Part shown: positions 3,189 through 57,687 of the stretch, in pieces
How the letters are laid out: each line of letters starts with the position of its first letter
Position numbering within the stretch: the stretch's first letter is position 1
NCBI GenBank assembly: GCA_003278735.1
Contig: QCDO01000009.1
Coordinates: 1,060-65,059 of the forward strand
Length of the DNA: 64,000 bases
DNA from: Prochlorococcus sp. AG-355-J09
GTDB lineage: Bacteria; Cyanobacteriota; Cyanobacteriia; PCC-6307; Cyanobiaceae
Direction of reading: 5' to 3'
Made by a program: the position numbers and the translations under genes
The notes under the pieces: model-generated
What the model saw: the letters and a program-made list of their open reading frames with translations, nothing else
What the model was told of the DNA's origin: nothing
Database searches by the model: none

Positions 3189-4106
3189 ATGGAAGAAGAT
3201 AAAAAAAAATTATGGAAACAAGCAATAAAATGGCCCCTTTATTCTGTTGCCATACTTCCAGTTTTAATAACAGGGGCTTATTTGCTAAATCTATATGAAA
3301 AGGTAAAAATTTATAATTTGATTGCATTTACTTTAGCCGCAATTTTGATATTACTTTGGGAAAATCTAACTAATGATTTATTCGACGCAGAAACAGGAAT
3401 CGATGAATTTAAATTCCATTCAATTGTAAATCTTGTAAAAAATAAAAAAATAATTTCATTTATTGCATATACATCTTTAGTTATTGGCTTATTAATAATT
3501 TCAATTATTTCAGTATCAACAAGTATAAACATTTTAATTTTGGTGGCAGCTTGCTGCTTCTTAGGATATTTATATCAAGGTCCTCCTTTTAGATTTGGCT
3601 ATAAAGGTTTAGGAGAACCATTATGCTGGCTTGCATTTGGACCTTTTGCTTACTCTGCAGTCTTAATTGCGTTAAATCCATCTAATATTTACTTTGAAGA
3701 TATTCCATGGAAAGTTTCTTTATTACTTAGTTCAGGACCTTCCTTGGCAACAACTCTTGTATTATTTTGTTCTCATTTTCATCAAATTTCTGAAGATAAA
3801 AAGCATGGAAAAAATTCACCTTTAGTTCGCTTAGGGGCAAAAAAAGGTTCTCAATTTGTGCCTTGGATAATTTTTACAATATATATTTTTCAACTTTTCA
3901 CTATAGTTAATGGATTTATTCCAGTGTTTTGTATCCTTTATTTGATTAGTTTCCCTCAAGCAATAAGACTTATAAATTTATTAAAATCTTCATATAAAAA
4001 ACCTAGTGCAATAAAAAATTGTAAATTCATCGCAATAAAATTTCAAACTCTTAATGGAGTTGGCTTAATCACAGGATTAATATTTAATTACTTGCTTAAT
4101 AAATGA
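3189..4106 (+). CDS. menA: 1,4-dihydroxy-2-naphthoate phytyltransferase (UbiA family)
   Basis: 305 aa polytopic membrane protein with the UbiA-type NDLFDAETGID motif, located in the men cluster. Confidence 0.85.
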   Translation: MEEDKKKLWKQAIKWPLYSVAILPVLITGAYLLNLYEKVKIYNLIAFTLAAILILLWENLTNDLFDAETGIDEFKFHSIVNLVKNKKIISFIAYTSLVIGLLIISIISVSTSINILILVAACCFLGYLYQGPPFRFGYKGLGEPLCWLAFGPFAYSAVLIALNPSNIYFEDIPWKVSLLLSSGPSLATTLVLFCSHFHQISEDKKHGKNSPLVRLGAKKGSQFVPWIIFTIYIFQLFTIVNGFIPVFCILYLISFPQAIRLINLLKSSYKKPSAIKNCKFIAIKFQTLNGVGLITGLIFNYLLNK

Positions 4107-6732: not shown

Positions 6733-7920
6733 TTATCTATCAACAGATCCCATAATGACATCTATTGAACCAAGGATTGCCATAATATCAGCGATTTTGG
6801 CACCTTTAAGAATATGAGGCAATATTTGCAGATTATTTAAATCAGCTGCTCTGATTTTAAATCTCCATGGGGTAACTTCATTATTTCCTTGAATAAATAC
6901 ACCTATTTCTCCCTTGCCGGACTCTAATCTTGTATATAATTCTCCGTTAGGAATTTTAAAAGTTGGAGCAACCTTCTTAGCTACATATTGATAGTCGATA
7001 CCAAAGATTTCACTTTTCTTATCTTCAGTCGCCATTCTTTGAGCTTCTAAATTTTCTGTTGGACCTCCTGGAATCATTTTGCAAGCTTGGCGAATGATGC
7101 TTAGTGATTGTCTCATCTCTTCAACTCTTACTCGATATCTCGCATAACAATCTCCTTCTTTTTCTGAAGCAATCTGCCAATCAAAATCGTCATAACATTC
7201 ATAACTATCGACTTTCCTTAAATCCCAGGAAACTCCAGAAGCTCTAAGCATTGGGCCAGACAAAGACCAATTAATTGCCTGGTCTCTTTGTATTGTTCCT
7301 AGACCTTCAATTCTTTTTCTAAAAATTGGATTATTTGTGATTAATTTTTCGTATTCATCTATCTTAGGACCGAACCAATCGCAAAAGTCTATACATTTTT
7401 CTAACCATCCGTATGGGAGATCACATGCAACACCGCCTATTCTAAAAAAATTATTATTTATTAGCCTTTGTCCAGTAGCAGCTTCCCAGAGATCATAGAT
7501 CATCTCTCTTTCTCTAAAAATATAGAAAAATGGAGTTTGAGCTCCTACGTCTGCTAAAAAGGGACCAAGCCATAAAAGATGATTAGCAATACGATTCAGT
7601 TCGAGCATAAGGACTCTGATGTAACTAGCTCTTTTGGGAACTGGAATATTAGCTAATCTTTCAGGAGCATTTACTACAATAGCTTCATAAAACATTCCTG
7701 CTGCGTAATCCATTCTGCTTACATAAGGGACATACATTACATTTGTCCTATTTTCAGCTATCTTTTCCATTCCTCTATGTAAATATCCAATTACTGGCTC
7801 ACAATCAATGACATTCTCACCATCAAGAGTTACAACTAACCTTAAAACCCCATGCATTGAGGGATGATGAGGGCCAAAATTGACAACCATTGGTTCTGTT
7901 CTAGTCTCTAGCTGAGCCAT
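6733..7920 (-). CDS. ndhH: NAD(P)H-quinone oxidoreductase subunit H
   Basis: 395 aa with strongly conserved NdhH/NuoD sequence ([30 protein letters not shown]-terminus). Confidence 0.95.
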
Positions 7921-7958
7921 TCAAAATTTAAGTTCTAAATAAATCTTAGTCGAAAGTT

Positions 7959-8861
7959 ATGCAAACTGACCTATCTGATTCATCTTTTTTCAATCATCAA
8001 TCAGTTATGACAGATGAGATTATGGCCTCATTAGAGCATTACCCACTTATACATAACAATCAACTTAAGGGAATAGACGCAACTTTAGGCGGAGGCGGAC
8101 ACTCTTATCATTTATTGAGAAAATATTCGGATTTAAATATAATTGGACTTGATCAAGATCCATTCGCTAGAAAGTCAGCATTAAAAAAACTTGATGAGTT
8201 TAAAAGTAGGATTGATATAAGGGCTTCAAATTTTGCGGATTTTGTACCAAAAGAAAAAGTTTCTTTTGTGATTGCAGATCTTGGAGTAAATAGTAACCAA
8301 CTTGATGACCCTAAAAGAGGATTTAGCTTCCAAAAAGATGGTCCGCTTGATATGCGCATGAATCCTTTTCTTGATGTTGATGCAGAGAAATTAATTGAGG
8401 CTTTAAATGAAAAAGATTTAGCTAACCTGATCTATAAATATGGAGATGAGAGATTATCAAGAAAGATTGCGCGGAAAATAAAATTGGATTTAAAGGAAAA
8501 TGGGAAATATTCTGGGACAAAAGAGTTAGCTTATTCTATTGCAGGCTGCTTCCCACCAAAACAAAGATATAAAAAAATACATCCAGCAACAAGAACATTT
8601 CAAGCTCTAAGAATTGCTGTTAATAAAGAAATTGAGGTATTAGAAAATTTTTTGCAAATTGTACCTGAATGGCTTTTGCCAGGGGGTATTGTTTCTATTA
8701 TTAGTTTTCATTCCCTTGAGGATAGGTTAGTTAAAAGTTGTTTTAAGAATGATCAAAGACTAAAAAATCTGACAAAAAAGCCAATAACTCCTTCCGAACA
8801 AGAAGTCGAACTTAATAAAAGAGCTAGAAGTGGAAAATTAAGAATTGCTCAATTAAATTAA
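7959..8861 (+). CDS. rsmH: 16S rRNA (cytosine1402-N4)-methyltransferase
   Basis: 300 aa with the motifs DATLGGGGHS, DLGVNSNQLD..RGFSF, HPATRTFQALRI and ISFHSLEDR. Confidence 0.9.
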   Translation: MQTDLSDSSFFNHQSVMTDEIMASLEHYPLIHNNQLKGIDATLGGGGHSYHLLRKYSDLNIIGLDQDPFARKSALKKLDEFKSRIDIRASNFADFVPKEKVSFVIADLGVNSNQLDDPKRGFSFQKDGPLDMRMNPFLDVDAEKLIEALNEKDLANLIYKYGDERLSRKIARKIKLDLKENGKYSGTKELAYSIAGCFPPKQRYKKIHPATRTFQALRIAVNKEIEVLENFLQIVPEWLLPGGIVSIISFHSLEDRLVKSCFKNDQRLKNLTKKPITPSEQEVELNKRARSGKLRIAQLN

Positions 8862-46850: not shown

Positions 46851-47815
46851 TTGAGGTTAAAAAAAACAATTTTTTCTTGAATGAAGAAGTCAATACCTTT
46901 CTTAAGAACATAATTAAAAACAAATCATTGGCTAATGGTTATATATTTTATGGTGCTGAAGGATTAGGCAAAAAACAAACTGCTCTTGAATTTATAAAAG
47001 AGATTTTCAAACAGTATTCACAAAGCGAAAATGTTGAAGAGAGAATTACAAACAATAACCATCCTGATTTTTTAATTATTGAACCTAATTCTCTTTTATC
47101 AACAAAAAGTTCAGGAACATCCGATCTTGAAAAAACAGCAAAAAGTGGATCTGAGATTATTAAAATTGCTCAAATACGTAATATCAAAACTTTTCTTGGT
47201 CAAAAATCAATAAACTCAGAAAAAAAAATTGTTTTGATTATTGATGCACACCTTTTAAACGAAGCAGCCTCGAATTGCCTTTTAAAAACCTTAGAAGAAC
47301 CTAGTAACGGAATTTTTATTTTACTAACATCTAAATTAAATCTTCTCTTAGATACGATTATCTCAAGATGTCAAATCGTCAGATTTCGATCTTTTTCTAG
47401 TAAACAAATAAAGTCAATTTTAAAAGAATATTTAGATACTTCTAAATCAAAGATAAATACAAATTTAAAATTTGAAGATTTAATTAATTCAGCCAATGGA
47501 TCTCCAAATCAATTATTGAAAAATATTGAAATTTGGAATGATTTTTCAGATGAAATTATAAGTAAATTGGATTCTCCAATTAAAAATAGTCTAGAAATAT
47601 TAGAAATATCTAAATCAATATCTGAAAAATTAGAAATTTTGCAACAGATTTGTCTAGTAAATTTAATTCAAACAATTTGGTGGAGAAAAACAAAAAATAT
47701 CGGTTTAGTTAAAAAACTTGAAAATTTAAAATACCTCTTAAGAAATAACATTCAACCAAGGTTGTCATGGGAAATAGCTTTTTTAAAAATTTCAATGGAA
47801 GATGTAATAGATTAA
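46847..47815 (+). CDS. holB: DNA polymerase III delta-prime subunit
   Basis: 322 aa with an AAA+ clamp-loader-like sequence ([25 protein letters not shown]). It has an ATGA overlap with tmk. Confidence 0.8.
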
Positions 47816-48594
47816 TCTACCGCAGAATTTATCAAGTTAGGATTTCTTGCTTGAATAAACTCTTGCCTAGCAGTTTCCACTTGAGAACCAATAGGTAACT
47901 CAAGACAATATCCAGCACCATATACAGTCTTTATATAAACAGGTTTACGTGGATCGGGTTCAAGTTTAGTGCGTAAATGTCTAATATGAACTCTTATTGT
48001 CTCAATATCATCATCAGGTTCATATCCCCATACTTCTTTAAGGATTAATGCTGGCGATACAGTTTGACCATGTCTCTGCAAAAGACAATGAAGAAGTTCA
48101 AATTCAAGATGCGTTAACCTAACAGGAGATTCAAACCATATAGCTTCAAATCTTTCCGGAACAAGAGTTAAAGGGCCATAATTTAATATTTCTTGCTGGT
48201 TAGTAGAATTTAATTGTGCTCTGTTGGTTCTCCTTAATAAAGCTTTTATACGTACATATAATTCTTCTAAATCGAATGGTTTAGTAATGTAATCATCTGC
48301 TCCAGAATTAAACCCAGTAACTTTATCTTTAAGGCCGCCTAACGCAGTTATCATCAAAATTGGTATATTTGATGTTCTTTCGTCTCTTCTTAATCGTTGG
48401 CACAAAGTTAAACCATCAACACTTGGTAGCATTAAATCCAAAAGTATTAGATCTGGTGAATATTGAAGAGCTAATGCTTGTCCTTTGATTCCATCTTCAG
48501 CTTTTTGGACATCAAAACCAGAATGTTCTAAATGTCTAGCAACCAAATCACGCATATCACGATCATCTTCAATTAAAAGGATTGAAATTTTCAT
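47812..48594 (-). CDS. rpaA: OmpR-family response regulator RpaA
   Basis: 260 aa with [13 protein letters not shown]...[20 protein letters not shown] and a winged-helix C-terminus. Confidence 0.8.
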
Positions 48595-48993
48595 ATTTAT
48601 AAACTATTAAATTAAGATTAAATTTTAGTAATATGATTCTCTCAAGAATTTGTAAAGATTGCTGAATTACTGTAAACAATTTTATCAATTAGAATTATCA
48701 GATAACTTAGTGATGGTAATGGATTAGATGGAAATTGCTAATTTTAATAAAGTTGAAATTTTAGAATTTCTTTCGATTCTATTCATTTTTTCTTAATAAT
48801 TAAAGGATTAATAGAAACAAATAATGGTTCGAATTGAAAGAATATTGTATTCAGATTGCCATTATATTTATATAAAAATTGATTTAAATGGAGTTTTTCA
48901 GCTTTCAAAATGTAATTAAGTTTAAAATTTTTTCATTTCTACAAAATGTTTAAACGCATAATACTATTTATATAAAAAAAAATTGAAGTATCT

Positions 48994-49353
48994 ATGAAAA
49001 AGAAATCTATTATTTATTCTGATTTATCAAAAAAACAACTAGAAGCTCTGAAAGAACTTTACATCTTAAAAAAAGTTGAATCGATGAGTCATCAAGAACT
49101 TAAAAAATATGTATTAGAAATTATTTCACATCAGATAAACGATACTATTGGCAAAGAAGAGGAAATGGAAGCATGGAGAGAAATGTCAGATTTTTTTGGA
49201 GAACAATTTGAAATAAATATCTTAGAAATACAAACAAAATATATTGACGATAAAAACGTAATTGAAACAGAAATAGATTCTCAGAAGCAAAGAATAGAAT
49301 TACTTGAAAGGAATAATTTAGATCAAGAGAAAAAGGATATGTGGGATGACTAA
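48994..49353 (+). CDS. Hypothetical acidic, coiled-coil-like protein (orphan)
   Basis: A 119-aa open frame isolated within about 1.1 kb of otherwise non-coding AT-rich DNA. No motif was recognised. Confidence 0.4.
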   Translation: MKKKSIIYSDLSKKQLEALKELYILKKVESMSHQELKKYVLEIISHQINDTIGKEEEMEAWREMSDFFGEQFEINILEIQTKYIDDKNVIETEIDSQKQRIELLERNNLDQEKKDMWDD

Positions 49354-49630
49354 AATTTCTTGAATGGTGTAGTAATTCAAAGTATGTAAACGAAAATATG
49401 TCTTAATTTTAAAGAAATGAAAATAAACCAAAGAGCTTGTTATTCACGTTTGCAGAGAATTTTGTAACCGTTCTAATAACTGTTCTTAAAAAACACCTAT
49501 GCAATTTAAAACTAAATATATTTAAAGTAAACTTGATTATACTAAATGTTCTATATACTGTTATTAAAATTATATCAAATATACTTGATTATATCTTCGG
49601 CTAACCACTATTTGGCAAAAAAAGTCAAAG

Positions 49631-49663
49631 AAATAAAAAAGTCACCTTTTTTATGGTGACTTT
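49631..49663 (-). terminator. Intrinsic terminator just downstream of the orphan tRNA-Asn 3' fragment
   Basis: On the minus strand this reads AAAGTCACC-ataaaaaa-GGTGACTTT, followed by TTTTTTATTT. Confidence 0.55.
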
Positions 49664-49684
49664 GGATAACTTTTTGGAATTTAT

Positions 49685-49703
49685 AAACTCCCCGGGCGGG
49701 ATT
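49685..49703. repeat. Distal att-like direct repeat: an orphan copy of the tRNA-Asn 3' end
   Basis: AAACTCCCCGGGCGGGATT is identical to 56889-56907. It is a GC-rich 19-mer in about 30 percent GC DNA. Confidence 0.75.
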
Positions 49704-49768
49704 ATATTCAACTCATCAAGAGTAGTCATGACATATCCTGAAGCACTAAATCCATAGAATTTATAGAA

Positions 49769-49789
49769 AAAACCCATAAGAAAACCCAT
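49769..49789. repeat. Tandem 9-mer AAAACCCAT-aag-AAAACCCAT (left inner arm of the island)
   Basis: The same arrangement, followed by the same TTTTTAT tail, occurs at 56748-56768. Confidence 0.55.
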
Positions 49790-49876
49790 TTTTTATTTGA
49801 TTCTCTTATAAAAAGAACTTAGAAGAAATTCAAGAGGAAAATAAATTTCTTTAGATGAATTTTTATACAAATTAGA

Positions 49877-50197
49877 TCAAATATCTTCTTCTCCGATAAA
49901 CATATATTCGGGAATATCTTCAGGATGATAATATTTCCATTCACATTTTGTGCATGCCCAACGACTCCTTACTGGTTCCATACAGCATCCCATAATTGCC
50001 CACTCTCCAGACTCAAATGCTTCTTTAGTTGGATGGCCCCACAAACATTTTTTTACAGTTTTTTTAGCACCACATCTTTTGCAATTTTGAACTTTATGCC
50101 AAAGATATTCACCATCTTGCAATAGAGGCAAATTTTCCATAAACTTACCCCGAAAGTACCAAGTATCATCAATTTTAGGTGGGGAATTTTTCTCCAT
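49877..50197 (-). CDS. Hypothetical Cys-rich protein of 106 aa, putative zinc ribbon
   Basis: It has CxxC at residues 39-42 and 82-85, additional Cys at 51, 71 and 72, and an acidic tail. It is the third gene of the coupled cassette. Confidence 0.5.
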   Translation of the reverse strand: MEKNSPPKIDDTWYFRGKFMENLPLLQDGEYLWHKVQNCKRCGAKKTVKKCLWGHPTKEAFESGEWAIMGCCMEPVRSRWACTKCEWKYYHPEDIPEYMFIGEEDI

Positions 50198-50199
50198 AA

Positions 50200-50373
50200 T
50201 TATTCTTCATAATCATATCCAGTAATTTCCTCATATCGAACTAGAACTTCTGCCCAAGTTTTGCATTGACCTGCAGCAAGAAGAACTTCATGCCACATAT
50301 CTACTGAAAGATGATTTTTATTTAGGAGTCTTGCCATTTTTCTTGATGCTTCAGGTCCATTTAGTTCATTCAT
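50200..50373 (-). CDS. Hypothetical 57-aa protein (MNELNGPEASRKMARLLNKNHLSVDMWHEVLLAAGQCKTWAEVLVRYEEITGYDYEE), absent from the ORF track
   Basis: Its ATG overlaps the upstream stop codon (ATGA at 50373-50370). Its TAA lies 2 nt before the next ATG. It fills the gap between the two flanking ORFs exactly. Confidence 0.45.
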   Translation of the reverse strand: MNELNGPEASRKMARLLNKNHLSVDMWHEVLLAAGQCKTWAEVLVRYEEITGYDYEE

Positions 50374-50573
50374 AAGAAATCACCCTCAACTTCAAAAGGT
50401 ATATACATCTCAGGATTCTTTATCCCATGTTTCTCTGCAGTTTCAAGCATGATTTTATGATCACGAACTAATGATTCATATGCTTCCTTTTCTTCCCCTG
50501 TAGCATCTTTGGGTAATTTTTCACCAGTTGTTGCAAGTGCTAATAGTTGTTGCCATTTTTTATTACTTATCAT
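50370..50573 (-). CDS. Hypothetical acidic 67-aa protein, first gene of the cassette
   Basis: An open frame divergent from hsdM across a 107-bp spacer. No motif was recognised. Confidence 0.45.
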   Translation of the reverse strand: MISNKKWQQLLALATTGEKLPKDATGEEKEAYESLVRDHKIMLETAEKHGIKNPEMYIPFEVEGDFL

Positions 50574-50680
50574 TAGATATGATTTCTACTTAATTAGAAA
50601 GATAACAAATCTAATGTCATAAAGTCAGCATTGAATCAAACAAAATAAAAACTAGGTATAAAATAAGAGCAATTATTTTA

Positions 50681-52261
50681 TTGGTCATTCCTAAAAAGAA
50701 ACAAAATACTCCACTAGATTTCAAAGCAGATCTTTGGGACTGTGCAAACAAACTGCGCAATCAGATGGATGCTGCAGAATATAAGCATTTAGTATTAGGT
50801 TTGATATTTTTGAAATATATTTCCGATTCTTTTGTTGAACAACAAAAAAAAGTTATGGAAATGATTAGTAATCCCAAGAATATTGAGTTTTATCTAGAAC
50901 CAGAATTGAGGGAAGAAGCGTTAGAAGATAAAGATTATTATGAACAAGATGTAATTTTTTGGGTACCACCAAAAGCAAGATGGGAATACATACAGAAAAA
51001 TGCAAAAGTTCCTAAAATTTTCAATGAGGGACAACTAATTGATGAAGCTTTAGTTTCAATTGAAAATGAGAATCCCTCATTGAAAGGAAAATTAGATAAG
51101 CGTTTTACTGCTGCATTACTAGAACCAGGAACAAAGGGACAATTAGTAGATGTTATCTCAAAAATTGGTTTCAACTCTAATGAAAAAGATAGAGATATTC
51201 TCGGAGAAGTTTACGAATATTTTTTAGGAAAATTTGCGGTGCTAGAAGGGAAAAATGCAGGATCTTTTTATACTCCCTCTCATGTAGTCAAATTACTAGT
51301 TGCTATTCTTTCACCTAATAAAGGTAGAGTTTATGATCCTTGTTGTGGTTCTGGTGGAATGTTCGTTCAAAGTGAAGATTTCATAAGGAATCACGGGGGG
51401 AAACTTGATGATATTTCAATTTATGGTCAAGAGAGCAACCCAACCACTTGGAGATTAGCCGCAATAAATCTCGCAATCAGAGGTATTTCTGCAAATTTAG
51501 GAAAAGAGCCAAGAGATACTTTTGCTGCTGATCAACATCCTGATCAAAAATTTGATTACATACTTGCAAATCCACCTTTCAATATTTCTGAGTGGAGTGG
51601 AGAAAAATATGATAATGATCCTCGTTGGGTATATGGGAGGCCACCTATAGGTAATGCTAACTTTGCATGGTTGCAACACATGCTTTGGAAGTTGAGACCA
51701 GGTGGTCAAGCAGGCATTGTACTGGCAAACGGATCTATGAGTTCCAATACGAGTAATGAAGGAAATATTAGAGAAGAAATGGTCAGAAAAGATGTAGTTG
51801 AAATAATGATTGCCCTGCCTAGTCAACTATTTCTGAATACTCAAATATCTGTATGCTTATGGTTTTTGACAAATGATAAAACTAAAAAAGGAAGAGATAG
51901 AAGAGGTGAAACTTTATTCATTGATGCTCGTCAAATTGGGAAAATGAAATCCCGTGTAGAAAGAATTCTTACTACTGAAGATATTTCTAAAATTGCAGAT
52001 ACTGTTGATTCTTGGCGCAATAAAGAAGACTTTGTTGGTGTAGAAGGTTTCTGCCACAATGCAAATTTTGAAGAAATTGAAAGAAATGGTTTTATTCTAA
52101 TTCCCGGAAGATATGTAGGTACTCTAGAAGAGGAAGATGATGATGAAAGTTTTGATGAAAAAATGAAAAAACTTACTTTTTTACTCAAAGAGCAACAAGA
52201 GGAAGGAGCAAAATTAGATAAGCAAATTAGTAATCACTTGAAGAGGATTGGTTATGGTTGA
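50681..52261 (+). CDS. hsdM: Type I restriction-modification system, DNA methyltransferase subunit
   Basis: 526 aa with an HsdM N-domain (LW..ANKLRN.MDAAEYKHLVLGLIFLKYISD), the SAM motif DPCCGSGGM and the catalytic NPPF (ILANPPFN). The start codon is TTG. Confidence 0.95.
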   Translation: MVIPKKKQNTPLDFKADLWDCANKLRNQMDAAEYKHLVLGLIFLKYISDSFVEQQKKVMEMISNPKNIEFYLEPELREEALEDKDYYEQDVIFWVPPKARWEYIQKNAKVPKIFNEGQLIDEALVSIENENPSLKGKLDKRFTAALLEPGTKGQLVDVISKIGFNSNEKDRDILGEVYEYFLGKFAVLEGKNAGSFYTPSHVVKLLVAILSPNKGRVYDPCCGSGGMFVQSEDFIRNHGGKLDDISIYGQESNPTTWRLAAINLAIRGISANLGKEPRDTFAADQHPDQKFDYILANPPFNISEWSGEKYDNDPRWVYGRPPIGNANFAWLQHMLWKLRPGGQAGIVLANGSMSSNTSNEGNIREEMVRKDVVEIMIALPSQLFLNTQISVCLWFLTNDKTKKGRDRRGETLFIDARQIGKMKSRVERILTTEDISKIADTVDSWRNKEDFVGVEGFCHNANFEEIERNGFILIPGRYVGTLEEEDDDESFDEKMKKLTFLLKEQQEEGAKLDKQISNHLKRIGYG

Positions 52262-53531
52262 AGGATGGAACATAATCCCTTTACGGGAAATAGCAGAATT
52301 TCAAAACGGATTTGCTTTTAGCAGCAGAGATTATGTAAAAAAATCCCCCAAAAATAAAGAAGTATTGAGGATGGGTTATATAAAAAGAGGTGGTGGTTTC
52401 AAAGAATTTGATAAGGCAGTTTTCATACCTCAAAACCATAAAGCAAATGAAGAGAAATTCGCTTTAGAACACGGTGATATTGTTATAGCGATGACAGACA
52501 TGAAAGATAAAGTGGCAATATTAGGTAACTGCGCAAGAATCACAGATACAGGGAGATTCCTTCTAAATCAAAGAGTAGGAAGAATTAGGACCAAAGATAA
52601 GAATAAAGCTAACCAGAGATTTCTCTATTATTTTTTGAATTCACCAAGTCATATCCGAAATTTACGATCAAGAGCTAATACTGGCGTTCAAGTAAATCTA
52701 ACAACAGAATCTATTATTGAATCGAATATTTCTTTACCTTCAATATCAGAGCAAATAGCAATATCTTCGATACTAGGAGTTTTAGATGAAAAAATTGAAC
52801 TAAATCAAAAAACTAACGAAACAATTGAAAAAATAGCTAAATCACTTTTCAAATCTTGGTTTATTGATTTTGATCCCGTGAAAGAAAAAGTAAAAGATCG
52901 TTCAACAGGATTACCAAAAGAAATTAGTGATTTATTTCCAGATTTACTTGTAGATTCTGAATTAGGAAAAATTCCTCGTGGATGGGAAATAAAAAAACTT
53001 GGAGAAATAATTGAACTTGTTTATGGAAAACCTTTGAAAGAGTCAGATAGAATAAAAGGCTCATATCCGGTGTTCGGTTCAAATGGAATAGTTGGTTTTC
53101 ATAATAATTATCTTGTGAAAGGGCCAGGAATTATTGTTGGCAGAAAAGGTAATCCAGGAATAGTGAAATGGTCATATGATGATTTTTTCCCAATTGATAC
53201 TACTTTTTATGTGAAACCGAAAAGTAGCATAAGAGAAATGACTTTTATCTTTTTTGCCTTACATAACCAAAAATTATCAAATTTATCTGCAGATTCTGCA
53301 GTACCTGGTTTGAATCGAAATATTGCATATATGAGCCAGCAAATCATTCCATCTGCCTCATTATTAGAAATATTTGAACAACAGATAAAAGATTTATTTC
53401 TTGGTATGAAAGCAAGAAACTTGCAGAGTTTATCTCTTCAAAAAGTAAAAGATACTCTTCTTCCTAAACTTATATCAGGAAAAATTAGAATTACTGACGC
53501 TGAAAAAATGATTGATGAGGTAGGTATCTAA
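52248..53531 (+). CDS. hsdS: Type I R-M specificity subunit with two target-recognition domains
   Basis: 427 aa with a conserved central spacer (LPSISEQIAISSILGVLDEKIELNQK) and a distal spacer (LLPKLISGKIRI). It overlaps hsdM by 14 nt. Confidence 0.9.
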   Translation: MVMVEGWNIIPLREIAEFQNGFAFSSRDYVKKSPKNKEVLRMGYIKRGGGFKEFDKAVFIPQNHKANEEKFALEHGDIVIAMTDMKDKVAILGNCARITDTGRFLLNQRVGRIRTKDKNKANQRFLYYFLNSPSHIRNLRSRANTGVQVNLTTESIIESNISLPSISEQIAISSILGVLDEKIELNQKTNETIEKIAKSLFKSWFIDFDPVKEKVKDRSTGLPKEISDLFPDLLVDSELGKIPRGWEIKKLGEIIELVYGKPLKESDRIKGSYPVFGSNGIVGFHNNYLVKGPGIIVGRKGNPGIVKWSYDDFFPIDTTFYVKPKSSIREMTFIFFALHNQKLSNLSADSAVPGLNRNIAYMSQQIIPSASLLEIFEQQIKDLFLGMKARNLQSLSLQKVKDTLLPKLISGKIRITDAEKMIDEVGI

Positions 53532-56500
53532 TGTCATTTCTCAATGAAGAAGATTTAGAAAATATTTCTATTGAATGGTTCAAAGAGATTGGCTATGCCT
53601 ATGCTCATGGGCCAGATATTGCACCTGATGGATCCACGCCTGAAAGAGATGACTTGCGACAGGTTTATCTGATAGATCGTTTGAGAACAGCACTTATAAG
53701 ACTGAACCCCGAAGTTCCTAATAAAACTATTGAATCTGCAATTCTTCAAATTACTAATCCAAGTATCCCTGGATTAGTTTCTTGTAATCGTCAACTGCAT
53801 CAATGGATAACCATGGGGTTCCTTGTTTCATACTTGAATGGCGATGAAGAAAAAAATATAAGATTGAAAATTATTGATTTTGAAGAACCTTCTGAAAACG
53901 ACTTTTTAGTAGTCAATCAACTAAAAGTTGCAGGTCCAAAATATAATCGTATTCCAGATATTGTGGCATATATCAATGGGATTCCAATAGCGGTGATTGA
54001 GCTCAAAAATCCAGCAGATGAAAATACAGACATTTGGGATGCATATAATCAATTACAGACTTACAAAGACAATATTCCTGATCTATTTTCTTCTAATATT
54101 CTTCTTGTAATTAGTGATGGAACATATGCAAAAGTTGGTTCACTTTCTGCCAATGAGGAAAGATTTCAAAGATGGCGAGTAATTGAAAAAGAACAAGATT
54201 TAGATCCCTTAGGAAACTTTAGAGAACTAGAAACTTTAGTAAGAGGATTATTTGATCAAAAAAGATTATTAGATTTTATACGTTCATTCTGCCTCTTTGA
54301 GGAGGACGGAGAAATTATCAAAAAGATTGCTGCTTATCATCAGTTTTATGCTGTAAACAATGCCATAGAGAGAGTTGTTGAAGCGAGCAGTTCTGGGGGA
54401 GATAGAAGAGGTGGAGTCGTTTGGCATACGCAAGGTGCAGGCAAAAGTATTGAGATGGCTTGTTTAGCTGGAAAATTGCTGACTGATGAAAGACTACAGA
54501 ATCCTACCTTGATTTTTGTTACTGACAGAAACGATTTGGATGGGCAATTGTTCGGAGTATTTGCAGGATCAGGGGGTTTACTTGGTGAATCTCCTAAGCA
54601 GGCAGAAACAAAAGATGATCTTAGAAAATTACTTGAAGACATTCCAAGTGGAGGAATCATTTTTACTACTATTCAGAAGTTTGCCAAAAAGAAAGAGGAG
54701 CATAAATTTCCTCAACTTACCTCTAGGGAAAATATTATTGTCATTTGTGATGAAGCTCATAGATCACAATATGGGTTCAGAGCAAGAATTGATTCAAAAA
54801 CTGGGGAAATCAAATATGGTTTAGCAAGAGGTCTTAGAGATGCCCTTCCAAATGCAACATTTTTAGCTTTCACTGGAACTCCAATTTCTTTCGCTGATAA
54901 AAATACACAATCTGTTTTTGGACATTACATATCCATTTATGACATACAGCAGGCTGTTGAAGATAAAGCAACAGTTCCAATTTATTACGAGTCTAGGCAA
55001 GCAAAATTAGAACTCAAAAAAGATGCGATTCCCATTATCGATAGTAGAGAAGAGGAAATTTTTGCTAGTGAAGATGAATTGCCAGAAAATTATAAAAAGA
55101 AAAGTAAATGGGCAGCATTAGAAAAATTAGTTGGTTCTCCTCCACGCCTAAAACAAATTGCTCAGGACCTCGTAAAACATTATGAGAAAAGATGTGAAAT
55201 ACAACCAGGAAAAGCATTAGTAGTTGGCATGAGTAGAGAAATTTGTGCATCTCTTTATAAAGAAATAATCGCAATCAAACCTGAGTGGGAAGATTCATCT
55301 CATATGAGAGGTTCCATCAAGGTCGTCATGACAGCAAAAGCGTCTGATAAATTTGAACTTCAAAAACATAATACAAATAAACAACAAAGAGATGACTTAG
55401 CTAAGAGATTCAAAGATCCAAATGATCCTCTAAAGATTGTTTTAGTTAGAAATATGTGGCTTACAGGATTTGATGCTCCATGCTTAGCGACAATGTATAT
55501 TGATAAACCAATGAAAGGTGCGAATCTTGCTCAAGCTATTGCAAGAGTCAATAGGGTTTTCAAAGATAAGCCTGGTGGATTGATTGTCGACTATATTGGC
55601 TTTTCTCCTCAATTGAAAGAGGCCCTCGCTACATATACTGGAGATCGAGGAAGAGGAGAACCAGCTCTTGATATCGAAGAAGCATTATTGATTTTGAAAG
55701 AACAAATACAAATAGCTCATGATCTTTTATTTCCAGTTGAATGGGAGAATTTTAGTGAAAAAGGTAAAGCTTTTGAATTGATTCCAAATTGTCTAGAAAA
55801 AATACTATCAATCGAAAATGGTAAGCAAAGATTTTGTGATGCGGTTCTTAGAATGACTAAAGCTTTTTCTCTTTGCAGCTCAACTGATGAAGCCAATCAA
55901 TTCTCTGAAAAAGTTGCTTTTCTAAATGCTGTAAGAGCTCCTCTTATAAAAGATTCAAGAAGCGGAGGTACTCCTACTGAAGGAGTAGATTATAAACTTC
56001 AACAACTTTTATCAGAATCATTAGTAGCTCAAGGAGTTACGGATATTTTCAAAGTCGCTGGATTGAAAAATCCTGATATAAGTATTTTGTCGAATGCTTT
56101 TTTAGAGGAAGTTTATAAAATTCCTCAGAAAAATTTAGCAGTTGAACTACTAGAAAAACTTATAAATGATGAAGTAAAAAGTAAATTCAGAACTAACTTA
56201 GTCAAGCAAAAAAGATTTAGTGAAATGCTAAAAGCAACACTCAACAAATACGAGAATCGAGCGATTGAAGCAGCCCAAGTTATTGAAGAACTTATTGAAA
56301 TGGCAAAAAAATTCCGTGAAGATTTGGAAAAAGGAATTTCATTAGGGTTATCTTCTGCAGAACGATCATTTTATGATGCTTTAGCAGAAAATCCTTCTGC
56401 TCAACAATTGATGGAAGAGAAAGTTCTCGCAAACATGGCAAAGGAGCTTGCAGAAATTATCAGAAGGGATGCAAATATTGATTGGCAATATAAAGATAAC

Positions 56501-56635
56501 GTCAGAGCAAAACTGAGAATCAAAATAAAAACACTTTTGAAAAGATATAAATATCCTCCAGATGAACAAGTTACCGCAGTTGAAACTGTCCTTCAACAAG
56601 CAGAAACTCTTGGAGAGGAATTAGTGGCGAGTTAG
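53531..56635 (+). CDS. hsdR: Type I R-M restriction endonuclease/translocase subunit
   Basis: 1034 aa with a nuclease region (PDIVAYINGIPIAVIELK), helicase motif I (TQGAGKS), the DEAH box (ICDEAHRSQYG) and motif VI (QAIARVNR). It has a TAATG overlap with hsdS. Confidence 0.95.
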   Translation: MSFLNEEDLENISIEWFKEIGYAYAHGPDIAPDGSTPERDDLRQVYLIDRLRTALIRLNPEVPNKTIESAILQITNPSIPGLVSCNRQLHQWITMGFLVSYLNGDEEKNIRLKIIDFEEPSENDFLVVNQLKVAGPKYNRIPDIVAYINGIPIAVIELKNPADENTDIWDAYNQLQTYKDNIPDLFSSNILLVISDGTYAKVGSLSANEERFQRWRVIEKEQDLDPLGNFRELETLVRGLFDQKRLLDFIRSFCLFEEDGEIIKKIAAYHQFYAVNNAIERVVEASSSGGDRRGGVVWHTQGAGKSIEMACLAGKLLTDERLQNPTLIFVTDRNDLDGQLFGVFAGSGGLLGESPKQAETKDDLRKLLEDIPSGGIIFTTIQKFAKKKEEHKFPQLTSRENIIVICDEAHRSQYGFRARIDSKTGEIKYGLARGLRDALPNATFLAFTGTPISFADKNTQSVFGHYISIYDIQQAVEDKATVPIYYESRQAKLELKKDAIPIIDSREEEIFASEDELPENYKKKSKWAALEKLVGSPPRLKQIAQDLVKHYEKRCEIQPGKALVVGMSREICASLYKEIIAIKPEWEDSSHMRGSIKVVMTAKASDKFELQKHNTNKQQRDDLAKRFKDPNDPLKIVLVRNMWLTGFDAPCLATMYIDKPMKGANLAQAIARVNRVFKDKPGGLIVDYIGFSPQLKEALATYTGDRGRGEPALDIEEALLILKEQIQIAHDLLFPVEWENFSEKGKAFELIPNCLEKILSIENGKQRFCDAVLRMTKAFSLCSSTDEANQFSEKVAFLNAVRAPLIKDSRSGGTPTEGVDYKLQQLLSESLVAQGVTDIFKVAGLKNPDISILSNAFLEEVYKIPQKNLAVELLEKLINDEVKSKFRTNLVKQKRFSEMLKATLNKYENRAIEAAQVIEELIEMAKKFREDLEKGISLGLSSAERSFYDALAENPSAQQLMEEKVLANMAKELAEIIRRDANIDWQYKDNVRAKLRIKIKTLLKRYKYPPDEQVTAVETVLQQAETLGEELVAS

Positions 56636-56747
56636 TTTTTCTATTTTATATCCAAAAAAAGAACCTGTTGCTATTCAAATTTGATTAGATATAAACTACA
56701 AGAATCTAAATAAATTGCATAATAAAAACACATTTTTGAAAAGAGCT

Positions 56748-56768
56748 AAAACCCATATAAAAACCCAT
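56748..56768. repeat. Tandem 9-mer AAAACCCAT-ata-AAAACCCAT (right inner arm of the island)
   Basis: Partner of the repeat at 49769-49789, in the same orientation and with the same T-rich tail. Confidence 0.55.
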
Positions 56769-56847
56769 TTTTTATCTTTCTTTTGAGGTATCCTGAGGTC
56801 GGGTGACGTCCTAAATTTTGAAGATTGTAGTGCTTGCAATAAAAAAG

Positions 56848-56873
56848 ACCCCTAGTGGAGTCTCTTGATTACT
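56848..56873 (-). terminator. Intrinsic terminator downstream of the intact tRNA-Asn
   Basis: On the minus strand this reads AGACTCC-acta-GGGGTCT, a 7-bp stem with one G-U pair, followed by TTTTTTATT. Confidence 0.45.
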
Positions 56874-56891
56874 ACTGATGTTTGAATAAAA

Positions 56892-56963
<72 letters not shown>

Positions 56964-57012
56964 ATATAGAATGAATTTAGCTCTTTAAAGTACCTTATGA
57001 CAAGTACAAGAG

Positions 57013-57687
57013 TTAATTATATTGAAATTTTGATGGTTCTTGCCAGCTAGATAAAAAACCATTTTTCAACTCTGCTACTGCATCAGCATAAGTTAATTCT
57101 TCATAACGATGAGTAATCCACAAAGCCGATAAAGGTTTTTTATAATCACTTGTGAGATTTTTAATAGTTCGTAAAACTTTTAATTGACTAGTTTGATCAA
57201 GTAACGCTGTAGGCTCATCTAAAAGAATAAAATTTCTATTACTAATAAGAGCACTTGCAATGGTTAAGCGTTGTTTTTGTCCACCGCTCAAAGTATGAAC
57301 TGGCCTTTTTTCAAAACCAGTCATTCCTACCTGATCAAGTACATATTCAATTTTTTTATTAATTTCATTTTGACTTATATTCTGATTAATATTAATCAGA
57401 AGTTCACTCCTACAGTTTGGCATCAATATTTGATGATCAGGATTTTGGAACACCATGCCAATATTTGCATTAGAGTAGATAAAACCATTTTTGGGTTTGA
57501 TTATTCCATTAATTAATTTTAAAAGAGTACTTTTTCCGCTCCCGTTTTTACCTACGACCATCCAAAATCCATTTTTTTTTATTGATAAATTACATTTAAA
57601 AATTAAATTTTCTTTTTCTCCAGGATATGAAAAAGAAACATCTTTAAAGTTAATATGAGGTATTTCATTTTCAAAGGAATCTAGCAT
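57013..57687 (-). CDS. ABC transporter ATP-binding protein (ECF/CbiO-like)
   Basis: 224 aa with Walker A (GKNGSGKSTLL), the signature LSGGQKQR and Walker B (ILLDEP). Confidence 0.85.
   Translation of the reverse strand: MLDSFENEIPHINFKDVSFSYPGEKENLIFKCNLSIKKNGFWMVVGKNGSGKSTLLKLINGIIKPKNGFIYSNANIGMVFQNPDHQILMPNCRSELLININQNISQNEINKKIEYVLDQVGMTGFEKRPVHTLSGGQKQRLTIASALISNRNFILLDEPTALLDQTSQLKVLRTIKNLTSDYKKPLSALWITHRYEELTYADAVAELKNGFLSSWQEPSKFQYN

Follow-up and report, generated by a model that had tools for sequence, protein, structure and literature searches.

The stretch of DNA analysed here, referred to as the window (64,000 nucleotides of contig QCDO01000009.1 of Prochlorococcus sp. AG-355-J09, positions 1,060 to 65,059 of the forward strand), harbors three small minus-strand genes, designated A, B and C, which are located in an island at a tRNA-Asn gene and diverge from a type I restriction-modification (R-M) operon (hsdMSR; Table 1). 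The stop codon of A and the start codon of B overlap in an ATGA sequence at 50373-50370, and the stop codon of B is followed after 2 nt by the start codon of C (TAAttATG at 50202-50195). An earlier note, made from the sequence alone, had described the trio as three open reading frames (ORFs) of 67, 57 and 106 amino acids (aa) with this packing and a gap of 107 bp to hsdM, and both the coordinates and the junctions match. The gene products of A and B have isoelectric points (pI) of approximately 5.0 to 5.1 and a net charge of about -4 each. The C protein is near neutral (net charge about -1, pI 6.3) and contains seven cysteines and six tryptophans, with CxxC pairs at residues 39-42 and 82-85. 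Its two cysteine knuckles are separated by an insert ([YW]GxPTxEAFxSG...GC), and it has a basic patch (KRCGAKKTVKK). The C-terminal tail of A (IKNPEMYIPFEVEGDFL) is nearly invariant among relatives, and the TTG start codon of hsdM at position 50681 is kept in them as well.

Table 1. Positions of the A-B-C trio and of the surrounding tRNA-Asn element in the window
Feature	Position	Strand	Description
att'	49685..49703	-	exact 19-nt copy of the attachment site (att), 174 nt beyond the C stop codon
arm-type repeat ATGGGTTTT x2	49769..49796	-	~65 nt inside att'
gene C	49877..50197	-	ORF, 106 aa, zinc ribbon
gene B	50200..50373	-	ORF, 57 aa, mildly acidic; three helices as read from sequence
gene A	50370..50573	-	ORF, 67 aa, mildly acidic, probably helical
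control region A/hsdM	50574..50680	.	107 bp, bidirectional, nearly invariant in relatives
hsdM	50681..52261	+	type I methyltransferase; N6_Mtase 2.6e-104, HsdM_N 2.6e-21
hsdS	52248..53531	+	specificity subunit; Methylase_S 7e-31
hsdR	53531..56635	+	restriction subunit; HSDR_N, SWI2_SNF2, T1RH-like_C
arm-type repeat ATGGGTTTT x2	56748..56775	-	~113 nt inside the tRNA-side att
att (tRNA side)	56889..56907	-	19 nt at the tRNA-Asn 3' end
tRNA-Asn(GTT)	56891-56964	-	tRNA gene

A, B and C are real genes, because the same arrangement recurs in many contigs and because the ratio of nonsynonymous to synonymous substitution rates (dN/dS) is low for all three. In a word-indexed search covering 5.8 billion proteins, 57 protein clusters were retrieved for A (69-100% identity), 105 for B (65-96%) and 18 for C (53-97%), all of them from marine metagenomes or Prochlorococcus assemblies and none with a Pfam domain. 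The homologues of B are nearly all exactly 57 aa long, and most complete homologues of A comprise 67 aa. ORFs of 67, 57 and 106 aa are found at identical offsets in more than 20 independent contigs from different samples, where A and B are joined by the ATGA overlap, and B and C either by the 2-nt spacer or by a second ATGA overlap. The trio was therefore rightly taken for a tightly coupled three-gene unit, since its order and packing recur in all these contigs. In the lineage represented by contig L034, C is 57% identical, yet the order and packing of the trio are unchanged. The mean dN/dS (pairwise, Nei-Gojobori) amounts to 0.14 for A (21 alleles), 0.28 for B (14 alleles) and 0.07 for C (14 alleles), and these values (0.07-0.28), together with the recurrence in more than 20 contigs, demonstrate conservation under purifying selection and rule out spurious ORFs. 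Frame-disrupting variants do occur in part of the relatives: in the divergent lineage of L021 and L022, the frame of A is interrupted by a stop at codon 32 and that of C by a stop at codon 82 (Cys82 TGC to TGA), with an intact B, and several rare metagenome variants of C are frameshifted near two A7 runs. The three intact C clusters account for 634 of the 652 member sequences. The two A7 runs (GCTAAAAAAACTGTAAAAAAATG) are located at 50046-50066 of the window and encode KKTVKK; the frame changes near them could be assembly or sequencing errors, or slippage.

The trio and hsdMSR are the only content between the two att copies (49704-56888), which form an exact direct repeat of 19 nt (AATCCCGCCCGGGGAGTTT on the minus strand) with a chance expectation of 0.00. 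The arm-type repeats at both ends comprise 28 nt with two ATGGGTTTT units each. The same 19-nt repeats are found in L012, L017, L020 and L024; the arm geometry of the att' end recurs in L012, L017 and L020 and at the integrase end of L024, and that of the tRNA side in L009 and L024. In two related genomes (L048 and L049), which encode a response-regulator protein identical to that of the window (47812-48594), the site is empty. Their tRNA-Asn flank corresponds to 57012-56889 of the window and the segment following it to 49703-49348. Since the two overlap by exactly 19 nt, the alignment identifies the window element as an insert of 7,204 bp with precise boundaries, made by site-specific recombination at the tRNA-Asn 3' end. 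The trio is therefore part of a discrete element that was formerly mobile. The position inside a tRNA-Asn island, as claimed in the earlier note, is thus supported by the att duplications bracketing the cassette, by the empty sites of relatives and by an integrase-bearing relative, L024. Just outside att', a gene for an acidic DUF7326 protein (48994-49353, plus strand; 119 aa, 3.1e-17) is located, which is also present at the empty sites of L048 and L049 and is therefore chromosomal and not part of the element. A search of window positions 47500-57500 in Rfam gave the tRNA only.

Between the att copies of the window, no recombinase is encoded. A full-length element with the same att and arm repeats is found on the metagenome contig L024. 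Its order, beginning at tRNA-Asn, is arm repeats, a 91-aa cysteine-rich ORF, a small serine recombinase (PF00239, 4.9e-26), a C-terminal remnant of hsdR, a fusion of hsdM codons 1-48 with a polysaccharide-lyase gene, and A-B-C, followed by five small ORFs, a 107-aa ORF on the opposite strand, a tyrosine integrase (phrog_1, 1.3e-30), an excisionase-like HTH_17 protein (phrog_66), arm repeats and att'. According to the alignment of the ends, the window type, which is also found in L012, L017 and L020, is an internal deletion, in which the region just after C is joined to approximately 140 nt before att'. The window element is best explained as a 7.2-kb derivative which would have lost its integrase by this internal deletion. 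In L024, a 15-nt motif (AATAAGTGTGCTAAA) is present three times, at 562-576 and 643-657 upstream of the serine recombinase and at 4076-4090 just downstream of C; it could be a binding site of a regulator.

The conservation of the trio differs markedly from that of the adjacent R-M genes. In all 17 loci with a visible upstream flank the trio diverges from hsdM, as had been described for the window. The trio proteins are 82-98% identical, compared to 58-89% for the adjacent HsdM, 71-88% for HsdR and 27-32% for HsdS. On the DNA level, the window and L009 (from the single-amplified genome (SAG) AH-321-C14) share 93-95% identity in the trio and the intergenic region and 85-89% in the core-genome flanks, against 66-78% in hsdM, 51-58% in hsdS and mostly 63-84% in hsdR; identity is higher again in the 3'-terminal part of hsdR and on the tRNA side of the element. 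Of 17 aligned loci, 16 show hardly any variation in the 107-bp region and in approximately the first 20 codons of hsdM, the exception being the divergent L021, and the region stays conserved where HsdM is only 58-70% identical. In four loci (L023, L024, L026 and L029), other genes fill the slot, and what is left of hsdM and hsdR is limited to remnants (aa 16-58 and aa 869-1034, respectively); the trio of these loci is nevertheless undisrupted and constrained. The data agree with a conserved scaffold, consisting of the ends, the control region and the trio, beside a slot in which R-M alleles would be exchanged by recombination. The trio very probably represents backbone genes of a tRNA-Asn integrative element. 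The overall interpretation given in the earlier note is thereby upheld in part: A, B and C form a real unit of uncharacterised proteins in the island, but this unit behaves as the backbone of the element and not as a demonstrable accessory of the R-M system.

The hsdMSR operon itself is a mosaic. In the comparison of window positions 50681-56635 with L009 1931-7897, conserved stretches are found at either end, covering ~20-50 codons at the start of hsdM and ~170 codons at the end of hsdR, and the interior is 51-80% identical. This suggests replacement of whole hsdMSR alleles via recombination in the conserved ends. In L024 (2087-3154, minus strand) and L026 (8824-9891, minus strand), an in-frame fusion joins hsdM codons 1-48 to the coding sequence of a protein with a Polysacc_lyase domain (PF14099, 1.5e-15), and the promoter and start of hsdM appear to be reused for new cargo. 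A second paralogue of this protein is encoded in L026 at 7794-8810 (minus strand), along with a series of genes of sulfotransferase-like and radical-SAM-like type.

Searches of A, B and C against Pfam, PHROGs, PADLOC and NCBIfam gave nothing above noise. In line with the earlier observation that no enzymatic motif is recognisable, these libraries revealed no enzymatic domain in any of the three proteins; neither did they contain a matching toxin, antitoxin or defence model, and no helix-turn-helix (HTH) family in Pfam or NCBIfam matched A, B or C at E<=1. Profile searches against PDB sequences remained at chance level, with glutathione transferase for A, clathrin repeat for B and the S27ae ribbon for C. 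The three had been regarded as unknown proteins, and indeed curated libraries and solved structures explain none of them. A and B are not paralogues (hhalign probability 0.4%). No match to cultured phages was obtained with tblastn, and scans of IMG/VR viral contigs with the profile of each of the three proteins, or with the integrase of L024, detected no relatives; a phage origin of the trio was rejected, as these searches gave no phage matches. A scan of a genome collection with the concatenated query returned two loci only, and a description of the trio locus was not found in a literature search.

For C, an exhaustive HMMER search with its profile recovered 29 proteins. Distant relatives, located on other kinds of contigs, share the core CxxC-x9-[YW]GxPTxEAFxSG-x4-GC-x8-WxCxxC, in which C39, C42, C82 and C85 are kept. 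The zinc-ribbon-like character noted before for this protein, with its two CxxC pairs and three further cysteines, is corroborated by the conservation of these four residues. Matches of the relatives to generic Zn_ribbon models are weak (best Zn_ribbon_8, 0.0015), as is that of the C profile to S27ae (E 0.045), and no Pfam model covers the C-like domain. Because its relatives give only such weak generic matches, the domain is considered to be without a curated family. C is thus predicted to be a four-cysteine zinc ribbon of an undescribed subfamily, with a domain that is widespread. It resembles the zinc ribbons of Zn_ribbon_8 and S27ae/eS31 in having two CxxC knuckles approximately 40 residues apart, but it scores below every curated threshold, has an N-terminal tryptophan-rich segment, a conserved insert of about 25 residues between the knuckles, and no fold match in the PDB. 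An AlphaFold2 model built from 22 sequences (predicted local distance difference test 83.8, predicted template modelling score 0.73) shows one N-terminal helix followed by beta strands; the model from 7 close sequences only was unusable (predicted local distance difference test 41). Foldseek found no analogue of the former in the PDB (best E 4.8) and one weak match in BFVD, an 80-aa protein of an uncultured phage (E 0.017, template modelling scores 0.39/0.49). The C-like core is found in many otherwise unrelated small proteins (P0190-P0205), among them a fusion to leucine-rich repeats (P0192, 254 aa), a tandem duplicate (P0203) and the 188-aa P0202. One C-like copy (L036 224-433) is tightly coupled to a LytTR response regulator; A- or B-like partners were not seen in the context of this distant C-like protein.

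Gene A is also found without B and C. In Prochlorococcus XMU1411 and on many metagenome contigs, a homologue of 84-88% identity and always 67 aa is located just downstream of guaA. The gene that follows it after approximately 100-125 bp encodes a protein of 327/335 aa without an assigned family; next to it are genes for a C5 DNA methylase (PF00145, 1.9e-73) and a Cro-like HTH protein. This copy carries approximately 45 nt of the upstream sequence of A and the first ~45 nt of B, in which the ATG is changed to GTG and a stop follows after nine codons. The alignment therefore points to one truncation of an A-B-C cassette. In the lone-A lineage, the ratio of nonsynonymous to synonymous polymorphism (pN/pS) is 0.42, calculated from very few differences. 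A fragment of ~240 bp without an intact ORF, reaching from codon 19 of A to about codon 22 of B with ~95% DNA identity, is present in the SAG AG-436-O11 (L010 8001-8239), approximately 2 kb downstream of tRNA-Ser(CGA) in an unrelated island, where it represents a recombination remnant. Judging from these copies, the A-B segment is moved about by recombination and A persists without B and C. The segment downstream of guaA spans ~3.9 kb and contains A, the 335-aa protein, the C5 methylase, the Cro-like HTH protein and two ORFs without assigned function. It is flanked by tandem 11-mers (GGTTACACGTG)x2, at L001 7877-7897 and 11781-11790 and at L006 7816-7897 and 11783-11803; in a related contig (L037 ~825-860), (GGTTTCCCTCA)x3 is found at the same place. 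The tandem 11-mers may delimit a cassette of another type.

The trio is located at the only divergent control region of the element, which is almost invariant, and therefore a regulatory role is suggested. Furthermore, the gene overlaps suggest translational coupling and a fixed stoichiometry, and thereby a complex. Phages and phage-inducible islands have regulatory switch regions, and the position of the trio resembles these. We propose that A, B and C would form the translationally coupled backbone operon of a site-specific element targeting the 3' end of tRNA-Asn. The element would resemble a tycheposon or a small genomic island (see below), with the type I R-M operon as cargo, transcribed divergently from the shared 107-bp control region. 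The three proteins would be synthesised at a constant ratio and work jointly as a small complex without enzymatic activity, in which C would bind nucleic acid via its zinc ribbon and basic patch and A and B would serve as partners or modulators. The role of the complex would be regulatory, either setting the expression from the bidirectional region or controlling the life cycle of the element; possible targets are the cargo promoter, the trio's own operon and the element life cycle. Complex formation, nucleic-acid binding and the regulatory role are features we infer from the sequences. The proposal as a whole, a backbone operon of a tRNA-Asn element acting as a small regulatory complex, is plausible but falls somewhat short of being probable; the regulatory-complex function taken by itself is rather doubtful.

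Several observations weigh against this proposal. Since A survives alone downstream of guaA, the three proteins need not act only as a complex. None of them belongs to a recognisable DNA-binding family, and A and B match no HTH family. A conserved palindromic operator was not found in the control region: the window has an 8-bp dyad upstream of A (CATTAGAT-N30-ATCTAATG), which is imperfect in relatives, where the first arm reads CATGAGAT in most cases, the region being otherwise invariant. Every trio identified so far adjoins at least a remnant of hsdM, and therefore the trio and hsdMSR could be one six-gene cargo module. In addition, only one integrase-bearing element (L024) is available, most contigs being short. 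Apart from these points, a promoter consensus scan of the 107-bp region gave no sigma-70-like site. With regard to translation, several relatives have a Shine-Dalgarno-like AAGGAG 8 nt before the start codon of A, and most have kept GAG; the window has AGAAAT (50574-50595), and the translation initiation of A may be weaker in the window copy.

The constant neighborhood of trio and hsdM could also mean that A, B and C are a controller or establishment module of the R-M system, which would time or level the expression of hsdMSR, or alleviate restriction, so that the system can safely enter an unmodified host; this role would be analogous to that of type II C proteins or of Ral/Lar. Such a function would agree with the divergent position over the almost invariant 107 bp and with the extension of the conserved block into the first ~20-50 codons of hsdM. 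In a second lineage, seen in many samples, A with ~45 nt of upstream sequence heads a putative type II R-M system (the 327/335-aa protein and the C5 methylase); however, this arrangement goes back to a single event that truncated B and counts as one observation. It is difficult to reconcile with an R-M controller that loci in which hsdMSR has been replaced and survives only as remnants have an intact trio under purifying selection, and that the trio does not co-diverge with the very different hsdM, hsdS and hsdR alleles. The trio shares with type II C-protein modules the small gene(s) promoter-proximal to the R-M genes and a compact, highly conserved control region. C proteins are HTH_3/XRE-type dimers which bind palindromic C-boxes, whereas A, B and C match no HTH, C-protein, Ral or Ard family and a conserved C-box-like dyad was not found. 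Controllers of the C-protein type are not known for type I systems. Taken together, a controller or establishment module is unlikely. In a more specific form, the trio would be a new non-HTH zinc-ribbon controller complex on a mobile element, setting, from the invariant 107-bp region, the expression of any cargo in the adjacent slot, which is usually a type I R-M system, and ensuring safe establishment of this system after horizontal transfer. This is improbable; if true, type I R-M systems would have their first described dedicated controller, be it transcriptional or post-transcriptional.

As another possibility, the trio could be an addiction module similar to toxin-antitoxin systems, with A and/or B as antitoxin or adaptor and C as toxin, which would keep the integrase-less island in the genome. 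The tight coupling, the small acidic proteins upstream of a larger one and the retention of the trio in both the minimal derivative and the R-M-less element would be compatible with such a function, as would the pattern of decay, in which C is never intact without intact A and B, A survives alone and both A and C are disrupted in L021. However, this pattern comes from very few lineages, a three-gene layout of these sizes is atypical, and C is neither basic (pI 6.3) nor does it contain a nuclease or other toxin motif. Moreover, the suggestion of a toxin-antitoxin or anti-phage module gained no support from PADLOC, Pfam, NCBIfam or PHROGs, none of which gave a match to a toxin-antitoxin or defence family. 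We consider an addiction module very unlikely. Compared to the backbone operon proposed above, the R-M controller and toxin-antitoxin readings are possible but weaker.

That the island carries A, B and C as independent passengers with an anti-phage, anti-defence or DNA-mimic anti-restriction function is highly improbable: the island does carry defence cargo, the proteins are small and uncharacterised and C has the weak fold match to the 80-aa protein of an uncultured phage, but there is no PADLOC or PHROG match, the trio is absent from cultured phages and IMG/VR contigs, and the net charge of about -4 for A and B is far from that of known DNA mimics. For DNA mimics, a possibility raised in the earlier note and exemplified by Ocr and ArdA, these charges (only about -4 each for A and B, about -1 for C) and the lack of any Ard, Ocr or Ral match in Pfam or PHROGs led to rejection.

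The backbone element most closely parallels the tycheposons, which were described from the same genus and likewise integrate at tRNA 3' ends with duplication of a partial tRNA (Hackl et al., bioRxiv 10.1101/2020.12.28.424599). By gene type, L024 shares with them the tyrosine recombinase, the excisionase and the small serine recombinase; cargo of benefit to the host and accretion and decay at the island are further common traits. The targets listed for tycheposons are tRNA-Pro, Ser, Ala, Thr, Arg, Met and tmRNA (10.1101/2020.12.28.424599), whereas the target here is tRNA-Asn(GTT), outside these seven. In contrast to tycheposons, a replication module (primase or helicase) was not seen in L024, and the window copy is without any recombinase. 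The word "restriction" does not occur in the main text of that preprint, and neither R-M cargo nor the trio is mentioned (10.1101/2020.12.28.424599). With regard to sequence anatomy alone, the window element is also similar to integrase-less islands of the cis-mobilizable element (CIME) type, having att and arm repeats at both ends, deleted recombination genes and an autonomous relative with identical ends. The element is of an already known kind, a tRNA-integrating island with defence cargo in an integrase-less derivative. What appears to be undescribed is the tRNA-Asn target, the type I R-M cargo with many alleles and the trio of three families outside the libraries.

Mobile elements of the classical kind, and defence systems as well, are largely lacking in Prochlorococcus, which raises the question of how its cells exchange defence cargo. 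Here, a compact, bounded tRNA-Asn element delivers highly divergent type I R-M alleles beside an almost invariant trio and control region. If the trio regulates the cargo slot or the life cycle of the element, three new families would contribute to how defence genes spread in the most abundant phototroph of the ocean; if it is not regulatory, A, B and C are still three conserved families worth naming.

A scan of viral contigs with the arm-repeat DNA pattern gave two matches, L053 and L054. The latter is a contig labelled as giant virus; the match in L053, an unrelated phage contig, was rejected as a chance hit. At the same tRNA-Asn site, a different insertion of approximately 1.24 kb is present in L047 (7656-8900) and L050 (2430-3680), encoding ORFs of 129 and 96 aa, with tandem repeats of the GTGAAATGGT type at both ends and a degenerate att'. 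The tRNA-Asn gene is therefore a hotspot for more than one family of elements.

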